Of a DNA stretch of 64,000 nt, positions 32,501 through 41,500 are shown piece by piece. The stretch is taken from the NCBI GenBank assembly GCA_030141605.1, contig JAQGDQ010000177.1, positions 124,001 through 188,000 of the forward strand, written 5' to 3'. A program made the translations under genes and the position numbers. Origin of the DNA: Tubiluchus corallicola (taxonomy: Eukaryota > Animalia > Priapulida). Position 1 is the stretch's first letter. Each line of letters opens with the position of its first letter. Under the pieces are notes generated by a model. The model had not been told where the DNA came from, did not search any database, and saw only the letters and a program-made list of their open reading frames with translations.

Positions 32501-35500
32501 TAAATAAATTTAAAATAATAAAATTTGAGTAGTGCGAGGTGAGTGCATGACCAAACGGTCATTAAAACATTCACCTTACTCAAACGAAAAAATGATTATA
32601 ATTGTACATGCTTCTGTAGATAACTTAATAATGTAAATAAGGATAAAGTAAATAATGTTATAATAGCAATGGTGTAAAAGCAATAAAACTGAAAGTTGAG
32701 AAAGGAAAACATAATATGTAAATACGACATCGAGTGAGTCCTAAAAACTGAAATACTTTAAATAGTTACGAATTTGAATTATATGCTTATCTGTCAATGC
32801 AGCAACAAGCAGTAATAACTACATATTTATATGATAATGTATACTGGTAATTGCACATAATAGTACCATAATGATCCTTTAAACCTGTCAGTAAGAATGG
32901 GGGACTTCATAATATTAAAAATCAATATACACAGTATATATATATCGATATGTATATATATATATATATCTATAGATATATATAGATATAGATATATCAT
33001 TAATTGCATTATAGTCACACAAGTAATGCTTCAAACTATAATGCAAGCAACAATTTATATAGATATCATGCCATGTCAATTTTATTATGAAATTACTGCA
33101 ACTATCAACTATGTATATCATGTTATCATAATGTATTTTGCTATATTGTATTGTTGTTTAGTGTTTTCATAATAAAATTTAAAAAAATTCGCAATATATA
33201 TATATATATATCACACGTAGTATATTTTTCAGTGAAGTTCAAATATTATTGGCAGCATCACTTTATATAATGATAGCCACAGGCAGCACAGCCAACAAGC
33301 AATTAAGCACACAGAGTCAAGATATTTAGAGTTAAAATCACAAAAATTTTCTAGTTGCAGAACTACTGAAGTCAATACCCGTGTTAATGAAAAGGGAAGA
33401 TAAGTGACTCGGATATAAGCCACACAATATTCTACATTTCGTAGTGTTAAAAGCTAGAAAAAGTTGGTTTAATATGGATCGTAACATGTAATGCAGGTTA
33501 CTTAAAACCTTACCAAATTATCCGTTATAAAGTAATCGCAACTTTACCAATATATCAAAGCCTTACCTATTATGGAATTCTTGAAATCACTGCACTAATT
33601 TTGCATTTTTTAATTTTTCCATAAGAGCTTTCACACGTTGGGATTACATTTTAACATTTTACCAGTTTAAGCTTGAATTGTGAAACAATACAAGTAAAGT
33701 CCCTAAACTAAAACGAAACCCTGGACTTATTACTGAGAAAAGATGCAGCATATTTACAGGGTTCCCACAGAATTTTAAGATAAATTTCCCCGACGTTTTC
33801 ATGACTTTTTCCTGACCAAATATTGATTTTCCATGACCAAGGTAAGCAGAAATTGCATTACCAGTATATATATTCAAACATTTTTGTGTATGGACATTCA
33901 TACATATATATATATATTGGTAGGCCGTCGTCAAACGACGGATCCGGCCCCACAGACAGACACAAAATACAGAGAGATATTACAGTAGGAAATAAAATAA
34001 GTGAGTCATGAAAGTCCGTCGAGTCACTGCACATTATTCTTACGCCGACGCCTCTTTTCTTTGAGATCTTCTATTCGTAGATGCTCAAAGTTGATCACTG
34101 CTCTCTTGCAGAGCACTCTCCACTGAGTTCTGTCACTCGCCAGGGTCTCGAAGTTTTCTTTTTGGATGTTGCATTGATTCAGGGTATCCTTCAGCTGGTC
34201 TTTGTAACGCTTAAAGGGCCTACCGACCCTCCTTGCCCCTACTGCCAACTCACCAAACAGGAGAGTCCGAGGAATACGGTCCTCACCCATCCGGGACACA
34301 TGACCAGACCAGCGGAGCCGTGCCACAAATATGTGGGATTCAATGCCCCAGGCATTACAGCGACCCAAGACTTCCGTGTTAGGCACTCTGTCCTGCGAGC
34401 GAATGCCAGCTATCCGACGTAAACAGCGCATATGGAAACTGTCAAGCTTCTTGACCTGTTTGCGGTACAGTGTCCAGGTTTCGCAGTTGTAAAGTAGCAC
34501 CGGTAGAATGGCTGCCTTGTAAACTGCCATCTTCGTTGCTAGGCGGACATCCCGGGTATTCCACAGTCTTCCTGACAGGCCCCCGAAGGTTGCTGCAGCC
34601 TTGCCAATTCTGGTGGTTATATCACAATCACTAGAGCAATCATTTGTCACTGTGCCTCCCAGGTAACTGAACCGATCCACGACCTTTAGAGTTTCATCTC
34701 CGATCGTTATAGCAGGTGCTGTAGGAGTTGTACCAGGTCTAGGCTGCACTAAAACTTCTGTCTTCTTCACAGACACAGTCAGACCGAAACGGGTGGCTGA
34801 TAAAGCGAAGTTGTCCATCAAAAATTGTGCATCCTCCATGGAATGACTGGCAAGTGCACAGTCATCAGCATACAGCAGTTCTCTTATCAAGGTGTAACAC
34901 ACCATCGTTCGCGCCTTGAAGCGGCGCAGGTTGAATACGCCGCCATCGTACCGAAACCTGACCTCGACACCCCGATAGCACTCGTTGTAGGCATCGCGTA
35001 TTACTGCAGCAATGACTATTCCAAAAAGCAGTGGGGCTAGTACACATCCCTGCTTAACACCGTTGTTGACTGCAAACGGAGAGGATTCCTGGTGCCCATC
35101 CACAATACGAGCCTGCATGCCATCATGAAAAGAGCGTATTATGTTGACAATTTTTGAGGGACATCCTGTCCGACACAGAAGTCTCCAAAGTCCCTCCCTG
35201 CTGACTGAATCAAACGCTTTTGTTAAATCCACGAATATCAAGTAGAGGTCCCGATGTTGCTCCCTACACTTTTCTTGCAACTGCCACACAGCGAAGATCA
35301 TGTCAACAGTACCACGGTTTGCCCTGTATCCACACTGGCTTTCTGGGTGGAATTGCTCAGCGAGAGAACTAATGCGCCGTATAATTACTTGAGCCAGAAT
35401 CTTTCCAGCAATACTCAACAGCGATATTCCCCTGTGGTTGTTGCAATCTGCGCGATCGCCTTTCCGCTTGTATAGATGGATGATCGTAGCATCTTTGAAG

Positions 35501-38500: not shown

Positions 38501-41500
38501 ATAGCAAAACGAAAATTCACCAAAAATCGGAAAACCAGAAACGGAAAGAAAGTTCGGAATCCTGAAGGTTAGGGCTAGCACAGTTAGTATCAGCGAATAA
38601 AAAGTAAATGAAATTTTCTTCAACAAAAGAATCGTTGAATTACAAAAAACGAGCGAAAGCATGACAACGCGACATGCGTCTTCGTTAAGGGAAATAGCAC
38701 GCAAGTCGACGAGTTTATTTACGTTGAGAATTTGATATCTACTCCATTCGCTACTTGTGAGGCGACTGTTTAAACGCTTTCGTGAGCCGTCGCTTGAGTT
38801 CTCCCGGAAATCTTTCGTAGCACTTCTTGCACACGGGTTTCAGATCCATCTCGTAAAACTTTGTTTTTGGACCCATCTTTTGGTCGCAGATAGAGCACGC
38901 GAAGTGCTGCGTACACCAACTTTTGTTGAGTGCTTGAAAAACGTCTCCGGTAACCACGCAATCGCACACGAAACACACGTTGCCAAACAGCTGATGATAA
39001 TGAGTCTCGCAGTATGCTAAACCCTTCTTCTCGTAATGGCGGCTACCGTAGAACGGCTTCTCGCATTTGGCGCACACAAAATGCTCGACATGCCAATTCT
39101 TGCCCAATGCTGTGACCACCCTCTCTTCTATGGGTCGCCGACAAGCACCACATATAGGAATGCCCATCTTATCGTGGCATCTAAGGCAGTAGAGCTCCCC
39201 GTCTTTCTCTCTGGCGTCAATGTTTAATTCTTGGCTACAGTTTTTACAATTAAAATGATATGGATGATAAGCCTCGCCCCTAAATTTAATGTGACCTTCC
39301 TCAATGATGGCATGGCACTTGTGGCAGACGTATTTTCCCATTCCGGAAGCCTTCTCCTTCGCGTTGCACTCCCGACAAAGGGCGCGGTTGGCATTTCGGA
39401 CGAAGCCTGTATCGGCCAGCACGATGCCGCACAGTTCGCACTTGAAGCACTCCGGATGCCAGTTGTTGTTCATGGCTTTGATCACACGACCGATGACAAA
39501 ATTATTGCAACTTCCGCAGCATGGAGCAAACAGAACGTGGAAGTCGTGTTCGCAGTACTTCCGGCCTTCAAACTCATAAAATATTCCTTCCGGAAATGGC
39601 TGGAAACACTGAGCACAAACAAAGCATTTGGTATGCCATACTTCGCCACCAGAGTTCACTATCTGTTCGTGCACCCCGAACCCTTCTCCACAACGTGCAC
39701 ACGCTGCGTTGCCTAGCGACATGGTGATGCCAAAGAAAAGAAACAAAATAAAACGCTGTACTCAGAAGGGAACGCTGTGAATCACTTCTAAACGCTTGAT
39801 ACCAACGCATAGCACGCACCCTACAAAACATTAAAACAGGCTTGATTGCCGGACGGAGTGCCCCTAACATATAACAAATAAGCAACTTAACAACAAACAA
39901 ACAACAATAAACGATGTTCAGTAATTTGACCCGTGGAAATGTTGAGTGCAAAATAATATTCAAATGCAGATTAAAAATGGACCCTCAACCACAAATCTTC
40001 ACCTTAGAAAAGCCTTGCAAGCTCGCATCAGAACACACATTTATGCTGTCACATTCTTTATGCAGTTTTTTAATCCACATTTGCAGTAAATTTAGAATTT
40101 TGTTCCATCTGTTTGAGCGACAAAACCCAGGAGATAAAGACAAATCTTAGTAAAGAATTAAACTTTCGGGTTGCGGAATTCCTGGCCAGCATATCTTGCT
40201 GCACTGCCCAGCTCTTCTTCGATACGCAGAAGCTGATTGTACTTGGCTAATCTTTCAGATCGACAAGGTGCTCCAGTCTTGATCTGACCAGTTCCCAGTC
40301 CAACAACCAGGTCAGCAATAAAGCTGTCCTCAGTTTCACCTGAACGGTGGGACACCATGACACCCCAACCATTATCACGGGAGAGTTTGCAAGCCTGGAT
40401 TGACTCAGTAACCGATCCAATCTGGTTGACCTTCAACAGCAGACAGTTGCAAGCTTTCTTGTCAATGGCTGTCTGAACACGTTTAGGGTTAGTGACAGTC
40501 AAGTCATCACCAACTAACTGTATGCCAATAGTAGCAAGCAATGCAGTCCATGATTCCCAGTCATCCTGATCGAATGCGTCTTCTACTGAGACGATTGGAT
40601 ATTCCTTACATATACTGATATATAATGTGTCCCCCAATCACTATTTTTGGACAGAAGTCGGAACTGGGAGCCTGCCATAGCAAAATTTTATTTCAGCACG
40701 AATCACTAAAAATATTTTTGGAAAAATATCGGTTCACAGTGATTATTTTTGCAACGCTTTCCAACTTCCCCTCATCTTTCGCCCCATTTTCATCATTTTC
40801 CCTGACTACTTTCTACGAAATACCGTATTTTCCCATGTATAAGAGACCCTTGTGTATAAGAGACCCCTTCAATTTTTAGGCAAAAATTCTGGAAAAAAGT
40901 TTTTTGATAATGAATAACTTTATTCATCATAGAAATCATTAAATTCCTCATCACTCTCATCAAAAATATCAACTGGAGTCAGACCTTCAGCAATTCCAGC
41001 CAGTTCATCATCAGAGGAGTCACTCTGCTCAAAAATGGCATTGTCCTCTTTTGACATTTAAAAAAATAAAAACTTACCCGGTACATTAATTTTATCATTA
41101 GAATTTAGCCATGGAGAAGATTTATTGAAAGGAAACTATAATTATCATTAGTGTCACAATTTATGCATCTTATTGAAAAGACTTACTCCCATGTATAAGA
41201 GACCCCCTATTTTTAAAGTGAAAATTCTGAGCAAAAAAGGGTCTCTTATACACGGGAAAATACGGTAATCTTTTCCCTGACTTTCCAGGATAGCCTGTAT
41301 TGTCAAGTATTTCCCTGACCATGGGAACCATGTATTTGTTGATTTCCAGGCACTGCATATTTTCAAAAGTAATGCGAAATTGCAGAGTGTACTAAAGACT
41401 ATGAAAAACAATGACAGTTGAAAATCAGAAAAGGGCTGCAGCAAATTTGCATCCTCAGATTGAAACAAATTCACAAATGTACTATACAGTACAAGATAAG

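Follow-up and report, generated by a model that had tools for sequence, protein, structure and literature searches.

A young RNA-derived insertion joining enolase, PINCH and LINE sequences in the priapulid Tubiluchus corallicola

Within contig JAQGDQ010000177.1 of the priapulid Tubiluchus corallicola (GenBank assembly GCA_030141605.1), a stretch of 64,000 nucleotides (positions 124,001 to 188,000, forward strand; hereafter the window) consists of AT-rich animal DNA and contains a compact block in which sequences of two host genes, enolase and PINCH (LIMS1), lie beside a long interspersed nuclear element (LINE). The block occupies 33909–40606 of the window (6698 bp), between the two halves of a miniature inverted-repeat transposable element (MITE), and carries three stop-free, co-oriented frames on the minus strand, as a preliminary description of this DNA had stated: the LINE at 34024–37203, PINCH at 38751–39722 and enolase at 40158–40607. 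The enolase frame represents the C-terminal third of the protein, with 447 coding bases uninterrupted, and its highest identity among the matches listed is 88%, to the enolase of Priapulus caudatus. The PINCH product is 86% identical to that of P. caudatus, and the two group together (99/96) in a 25-row tree; at the 166 columns that 24 other PINCH proteins conserve, it agrees with them throughout (P 0.21). The block is real, young and RNA-derived, and represents a single event of a known kind; there is no sign of its expression, and up to three RNA templates may have contributed to it.

The strongest part of the finding is the target site duplication (TSD) at the exact point where the MITE is broken. 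The sequence TACATATA is present at both 33901–33908 and 40607–40614, and the repeat ends there, with no extension on either side. The earlier claim that an 8-bp duplication splits a MITE that is contiguous elsewhere was confirmed by an unsplit copy at 20411–20716. The left flank (33757–33908) aligns with 20411–20561 of this copy (137/150 identical) and the right flank (40607–40767) with 20554–20716 (142/161 identical), the two alignments sharing exactly 8 bases, which are the duplicated ones. At the break site the unsplit copy has TACCTATA, with one mismatch, and the chance of a given 8-mer at a fixed break position is 7e-5 by composition. MITE is a fair label for the host element, because a third copy (approximately 5243–5665) has terminal inverted repeats. 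On the element strand the TSD starts with TATAT and comes after the LINE tail, of which only (TA)4 lies outside the TSD. A TSD whose start matches the TA tail of the element is the pattern predicted by target-primed reverse transcription, and a LINE-type integration, as had been proposed, is borne out by this match. Twin priming was rejected, the block having no inverted part. Within the left half of the MITE, 35 nt from the nick, a 15-nt segment (33859–33873) is an inverted match (93%) to the LINE 3' end and tail (33908–33922), either by chance or as an aid in target choice. The second MITE nested in the right half (40821–41267), 200 bp from the insertion, ends in inverted repeats of 31 nt that are 97% complementary, with sub-terminal repeats inside them.

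Table 1. Features of the insertion block and of the MITE that hosts it (window positions; UTR, untranslated region; ORF, open reading frame; RT, reverse transcriptase)
Feature	Position	Strand	Remarks
Host MITE, left half	33757–33900	+	87% to 20411–20582, 85% to 5242–5381; terminal inverted repeat at start
TSD, 3' side of insertion	33901–33908	.	
(TA)4 tail, runs into TA-rich TSD start	33909–33916	-	from sequence
LINE 3' UTR, 107 nt, short hairpin before tail	33917–34023	-	X4 record 19 (family contig) matches from 33926
LINE ORF, APE endonuclease and RT, 1059 aa stop to stop	34024–37203	-	Exo_endo_phos and RVT_1; 8 non-synonymous and 5 synonymous private codons
LINE 5' UTR, retained part	37132–37561	-	homologous to L001 and L002 5' UTRs; family contigs diverge at 37561
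32-nt piece, multi-copy depth	37558–37589	-	probable near-5' end of LINE; loose contig ends at 37558, 37561, 37589
PINCH 3' UTR or downstream sequence	37590–38750	-	low-copy depth; no poly(A) at end; X1 record 7 leaves at 37590
Processed PINCH/LIMS1 ORF, 323 aa, intact	38751–39722	-	5 LIM stretches; parent has introns
PINCH 5' UTR, likely	39723–39866	-	probable boundary; two acceptor-like AG sites (39821, 39756)
7/8 TSD letters, same orientation; candidate enolase-PINCH joint	39867–39873	.	
Enolase 3' UTR, likely	39874–40157	-	probable boundary; ends in U/GU-rich tract, no poly(A)
Enolase coding sequence, truncated at its 5' end to ~148 codons, free of stops	40158–40606	-	Enolase_C; 88% to Priapulus caudatus enolase
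TSD, 5' side	40607–40614	.	base 40607 may double as first base of enolase Lys codon
Host MITE, right half	40615–41330	+	second MITE nested at 40821–41267

Contigs of four public runs were placed on 33600–39480, X1 and X2 representing one sample, from which the window itself may stem. The left outer joint was skipped as a repeat, the fourth placed run has no cover on the LINE, and cover holes in X2 and X4 were left out of account; contig records, differences and loose ends are reported here among those listed. No contig among them spans all of 33600–39480. A fraction of 0.82 of the sampled words is present in the best run and small shares in X5 and X6; no RNA run is among those listed by the run search.

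Judging by these contigs, the PINCH frame is a processed copy from which the parental introns are absent. One X4 contig matches 39313–39470 and then continues with 119 letters that start with a GT donor on the minus strand, while another matches only 39084–39236, with 76 and 192 foreign letters around it. The three exit points (39313, 39236 and 39084) fall at codons 137, 163 and 213, which we take to coincide with introns of human LIMS1. The earlier view of PINCH as intronless and of RNA-level origin is thus supported by the parent contigs, and the alternative named with it, capture of natively intronless parents as DNA, is refuted for PINCH because these contigs show introns. The copy has no poly(A) tail of its own; the longest A runs are of 6, at 40071 and 37917, away from the joints. 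In X5, a run of RNA by guess, three PINCH contigs are approximately 93–95% alike, one of them bridging 39084; they are too divergent and therefore provide no sign of expression for the copy in the window. A cluster of substitutions and three small indels at 37803–37889 sets the window apart from the X1 and X2 contigs, with near identity around it, and is probably an allelic haplotype block. A 22-nt pyrimidine tract right before the PINCH start (39723–39760) ends in GG, not AG, and the two other priapulid-group proteins have an upstream MVRGNL extension in place of the start Met found here. The 5' part of PINCH could be an alternative first exon or the end of a retained intron.

The LINE likely belongs to the RTE clade, as judged by its architecture and by motifs of this clade. 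It has a single ORF with APE endonuclease and RT and, in the part that is retained, no ORF1, and its relatives encode proteins of approximately 1040–1100 aa on contigs of 3.5–4.5 kb. The short 3' UTR (107 nt), the simple-repeat end (TA)4 and the short TSD are further RTE-like features; the relatives recovered in the protein search (at least 120 matches) bear no clade names. Two X4 contigs over 33926–37561 show 16 differences in 3636 nt and no gap (0.44%), by which the LINE copy appears young, in agreement with the recent event assumed in the preliminary description. Compared with the PINCH 3' region, the LINE is covered approximately 6–40 times more deeply in X2 and 10–30 times more deeply in X1. 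Among the differences listed, 14 in the ORF are shared, affecting 8 codons non-synonymously and 5 synonymously; the private changes include Arg to Trp at codon 640 and Trp to Ser at codon 936, both at residues invariant in 15/15 relatives. There is no in-frame ATG upstream of the endonuclease domain in the window LINE (37100–37203) or in its relative L001 (880–960), and translation likely starts at a non-AUG codon or by re-initiation. The protein stops (34024–34060) before a C-terminal Cys2His2 motif that is whole in 13/15 aligned relatives; this loss looks family-wide, because the family contig of X4 agrees with the window at the stop.

At its 5' end, the LINE appears to be incomplete. Family contigs part from the window at 37561 in X1, X2 and X4 and go on for 170, 323 and 204 other letters; in X1, 155 foreign letters precede the point (37558) at which one contig joins the window, and one contig of X2 departs from it at 37589 with 10 further letters. 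From the lengths of the loose contigs, the missing length amounts to 295 letters in X1 and 291–293 in X2, i.e. approximately 290 nt, and the depth left over on 37558–37589 by length and depth sums is multi-copy. We infer that 37558–37589 is the near-5' end of the LINE, joined over a gap of ~290 nt at the 4-nt microhomology GAGC (37558–37561), and at least 10 terminal nucleotides of the 5' end also appear to be absent. The relative L001 has >300 nt more 5' UTR than the window LINE. Splicing as the origin of the gap was rejected, as no GT-AG pair fits the loose contig ends; internal deletions are described as frequent in RTE elements (PMC7245038, PMC5786205). Of the whole RTE with a (TA)n tail that had been described, the tail therefore stands as (TA)4, but the element is not whole, with family contigs leaving it at 37561 and a longer 5' UTR in L001; nor is the proposed copying of the LINE RNA all the way to its 5' end supported, as ~290 internal nucleotides and at least 10 at the 5' end appear to be missing from this copy. 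For a 5' ribozyme, no Rfam match with E<1 was found in 36900–40700, where two chance matches occurred, or in L001–L003, and the fold of 37380–37620 is no better than shuffles (z +1.1), the LINE 5' part being missing from this copy. The long GC-rich 5' UTR of L001 (>800 nt; region 60–400), with no Rfam match, is a candidate undescribed 5' ribozyme or translation signal. A metagenome scan recovered 3 loci among 83 candidates, 40–52% identical, and the 32-nt piece was in none of them by blastn.

The two inner joints carry no poly(A), and at the PINCH-LINE joint there is no A run of at least 6. One contig of X1 (record 7) follows the PINCH 3' region to 37590 and then continues with 120 letters unlike the window; a version of the locus without the PINCH-LINE joint therefore exists. 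X2 record 16 is unbroken over 37560–38690 and contains the 31-mer over the 37589/37590 joint, with 30 letters on one side, just under the bridging threshold, yet 8 letters and 12 gap letters set it apart from the window. It could represent a donor allele, a further allele of the copy or a mosaic in which parent and copy are combined.

At the enolase-PINCH side, 39867–39873 repeats seven of the eight letters of the TSD without inversion, close to the strongest GC step of the spacer (39864), so that the earlier statement of one TSD only needs to be amended. A copy of this 7-mer in the 435-nt spacer arose in 3.5% of 5000 shuffles (P 0.035), in a test made after the sighting, and a chance copy of the 7-mer lies within the PINCH ORF (39150), while the same strand of the window has it 12 times. 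By this recurrence, enolase may be a second piece re-primed at the same nick, and the block is also readable as 7-mer, enolase, 7-mer, PINCH-LINE, 7-mer. The 7-mer agrees in part with a separate TSD around a cDNA, which the preliminary description had named as a sign against one event. Around the LINE alone, separate TSDs were looked for and rejected, the best direct repeat being 5 nt, and for PINCH alone one 8-mer (37586/39725) was rejected, since it would cut the start-codon context and straddles a joint. The spacer itself contains ATTAAA at 40074, a U/GU-rich tract and then the acceptor-like AG sites.

We tentatively favour, at somewhat less than an even chance, one integration in which the RT of the LINE changed RNA templates and wrote the LINE, a spliced intact PINCH and a 5'-truncated enolase inside the MITE. 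As judged from the anatomy of the block, the endonuclease would have nicked a TA-rich site and the DNA end would have primed on the (UA)n tail. RT would then have copied 3.65 kb of LINE RNA, crossing the ~290-nt gap at the 4-nt microhomology, either by a jump or on a template already without this part. At least 10 nt short of the LINE 5' end, it would have moved to a spliced PINCH RNA, at a site without poly(A), and copied past the start codon, and from there to an enolase RNA, possibly via a 7-nt target overhang that would have left the TSD copy at 39867–39873. The copy ends within the enolase ORF, and the site was closed with the duplication. We infer each change of template in this course of events from features observed directly, namely the TSD, the tail, the orientation, the splicing of PINCH and the incomplete 5' region of the LINE. 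What resulted is most likely a retrocopy that has no promoter and lies behind a damaged LINE.

This reading by template changes is supported by the TSD at the exact MITE break, by co-oriented and stop-free parts, by PINCH spliced at three places, by the X1 contig without the joint and by the 31-mer across 37589/37590 in X2. The two ends of the LINE share no pairing repeat over 5 nt. In addition, the P. caudatus matches of enolase and PINCH lie on different scaffolds (133,086 and 551,797 bases), which would speak against an old adjacency of these genes. Several observations weigh against it. With poly(A) absent at both inner joints, read-through explains the block without any jump, and a read-through donor or a dicistronic RNA fits this absence equally well as three templates. 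The LINE is 0.44% from its family, whereas 720 nt of the PINCH 3' region have no difference to X1 (expected 3.2, P 0.04) and the conserved columns of PINCH are unchanged (P 0.21); from this contrast, the LINE template may have come from a genomic donor that had aged, although with the variant cluster counted the PINCH 3' region reaches 0.5%, the same rate as the LINE. The joint-bearing X2 contig differs from the window, as a donor allele or a mosaic might. The P. caudatus scaffolds belong to another genome, which is fragmented and whose enolase model is partial (341 aa). Finally, read support covers 33600–39480 minus the left joint, with the enolase-PINCH joint, the outer joints and the enolase parent outside it.

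Among the other explanations, a 5' transduction followed by one jump is possible but rather doubtful. In this case a LINE without its 5' tip would have stood behind PINCH in some allele and been transcribed as the end of the spliced PINCH RNA, unable to cut itself free (a 5' ribozyme being assumed); it would have been retrotransposed by the LINE tail with a 7-bp TSD, enolase being added at the same nick. One jump fewer is needed, the PINCH-LINE joint without poly(A) is accounted for, and the near-full-length LINE has 5' losses and aged private changes; the 720 nt without difference hint that it is older than the cargo. The X2 contig that differs from the window yet begins in the LINE-derived piece, the 7-mers at 39867 and 33902 that flank PINCH and LINE alone, and the reported dependence of RTE elements on host promoters and 5' ribozymes (PMC8501958, PMC5786205) point the same way. 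However, X1 record 7 is a continuation of the parent without the joint, a TA-rich start occurs upstream of the joint no closer than 24–25 nt, which is long for a donor TSD compared with the 7–8 bp here, and the Rfam searches revealed no ribozyme. We consider it unlikely that the cargo came from a read-through or dicistronic RNA, in which enolase and PINCH would be operon-like neighbours <450 nt apart whose cis-spliced transcript ran into or was switched to the LINE and was 5'-truncated, as in PIPSL (PMC3747384). The lack of poly(A) between the genes and the order of ATTAAA, U/GU-rich tract and acceptor-like AGs agree with the layout of an intercistronic spacer. Against this stand the separate P. 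caudatus scaffolds, AG sites with 11/16 pyrimidines that are equalled or exceeded by 5/34 sites of the PINCH 3' UTR, no report of priapulid trans-splicing among the literature matches listed, and a 7-mer at 39867 that is left to chance. A captured enolase-PINCH dicistronic RNA, which would be the first sign of priapulid operons, is improbable to about the same degree.

Joining at the RNA level before copying is very improbable: an RtcB-type ligase would have linked broken mRNA pieces and a 5'-clipped LINE RNA into the single template that was then copied. This would account for the co-orientation and the lack of poly(A); RtcB is reported to join U6 to L1 (PMC6789731), and same-orientation inserts of two RNAs are described as indistinguishable from ligation (PMC11702581). 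Two mRNA ligations would be needed, however, and the 4-nt microhomology and a target-derived 7-mer would be left unexplained. We give even less weight to two independent insertions, of PINCH-LINE and later of an enolase retrocopy without a tail that entered the upstream copy of the TSD, with priming by complementarity. Three 7-mers in the same orientation do bound both modules, and tailless L1 copies primed by target complementarity are known (PMC5322556), but a second strike on the same base is very unlikely without a fixed target, unless coupled, and the 7-mer recurs by chance elsewhere in the window. An assembly artefact, with transcript-derived or chimeric reads built into the contig, is just as remote: it would agree with the incomplete run and the lack of a contig over the whole block, but it would not duplicate 8 bases at the exact MITE break, and the 31-mer over the inner joint is present in X2.

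Several published systems resemble the block. Chimeras of three co-oriented RNA copies with the LINE at the 3' end and one TSD, attributed to a double template switch, were described once in Magnaporthe (WEIRD-MgSINE-MGL, its MGL part taking 4.4 of about 6 kb) and twice in mouse (B2-U6-L1; PMC2104539). Their cargo is non-coding RNA and short interspersed nuclear elements with a full-length 5' part, whereas here two protein-coding RNAs are involved, the middle one with a whole ORF and the 5' one truncated, together with a possible inner TSD copy. L2 and RTE elements are reported to form U6 copies only as chimeras, and the U6-RTE and U6-L2 chimeras (Group IV small nuclear RNA (snRNA) pseudogenes, including three U6-RTEX-2 in Anolis) likewise combine a stringent LINE with a cellular RNA placed on its 5' side by template switching (PMC4476161); these are bipartite, with snRNA cargo and a usually short LINE, unlike the 3 kb of mRNA-derived cargo here. 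Seventeen human chimeras of mRNA or long non-coding RNA with mostly near-full-length L1 share sense spliced exons before the LINE and one TSD (10.1101/2025.02.02.635956). Their first exons often end at splice donors, suggesting trans-splicing, whereas the present cargo stems from two genes and ends in a 3' UTR with no splice signature at the joints. Nine insertions from two RNAs each were recovered in L1 experiments, three with pieces templated from nearby DNA (PMC11702581); they are likewise single insertions from two transcripts, but arose somatically under human L1 overexpression, while the present one is apparently germline and of another LINE clade. A jump of RT onto target DNA is also described (PMC2912911). 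PIPSL combines two genes in one intronless copy driven by L1, but as a spliced read-through of neighbours with an in-frame fusion (PMC3747384), in contrast to two separate frames with both UTRs here. Invertebrate retrocopies of at least two genes with switches at microsimilarity have long terminal repeat sequence on both sides (PMC5131818), in contrast to a non-LTR element on the 3' side only.

With tripartite LINE, U6-RTE and mRNA/L1 chimeras in print (PMC2104539, PMC4476161, 10.1101/2025.02.02.635956), the earlier suggestion that a three-template RTE chimera with an intact gene is undescribed overstates the novelty. Among the papers listed by our literature search, which reached few subscription papers and no supplements, none describes an RTE chimera that combines two protein-coding mRNAs. 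New here would be the intact ORF, the likely RTE, the priapulid host and the two protein-coding cargoes, the last of which would make this a rare variant. As in chimeric retrogenes, short direct repeats flank the whole, and the parts are directly joined in the same orientation, with the LINE on the 3' side and 5'-incomplete; the 5' part, enolase, is not a full-length cellular RNA, and PINCH has a full ORF without a poly(A) end. As to separate loci of the parts, X1 record 7 and the P. caudatus scaffolds say separate, and X2 record 16 is ambiguous. By analogy, the block would work like a tripartite chimeric retrogene, of which it is a candidate member: its parts may have separate origins, and its 5' part is shorter than full length.

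Of 123 long frames outside the block, the 116 scanned include no clear gene, the weak Pfam matches of 4 of them being unconvincing; therefore, the region is not gene-dense. Two further dispersed repeat families of approximately 79–82% similarity occur at 921–1516, 26102–26713 and 62404–62927, and at 18452–19108 and 54381–55068. Tandem arrays are found at 15486–16389, 14856–15173, 58884–59494 and 61792–62333, with units of approximately 50, 30–60 and 80 bp, the 80-bp array occurring twice, 2.9 kb apart.

In the current view, LINEs with specific recognition of their own 3' end produce few processed pseudogenes and take cellular RNAs along only in chimeric form (PMC4476161), and the RTE chimeras found in the literature have snRNA, small nucleolar RNA, tRNA or 7SL heads. 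We regard it as possible, if rather unlikely, that an RTE-type RT stacks mRNAs at one nick with the target overhang as adaptor, leaving three TSD copies and delivering whole intact genes, in a genome with a LINE that does not read poly(A), by a repeatable route to retrogenes. If true, the inner TSD copy would expose an intermediate of 5' joining. A simple screen for further cases is to read between the 5' end of each element and its TSD. As a young insertion with an intact 323-codon gene, the block indicates that, also in genomes not dominated by L1, whole ORFs can be moved by way of chimeras.

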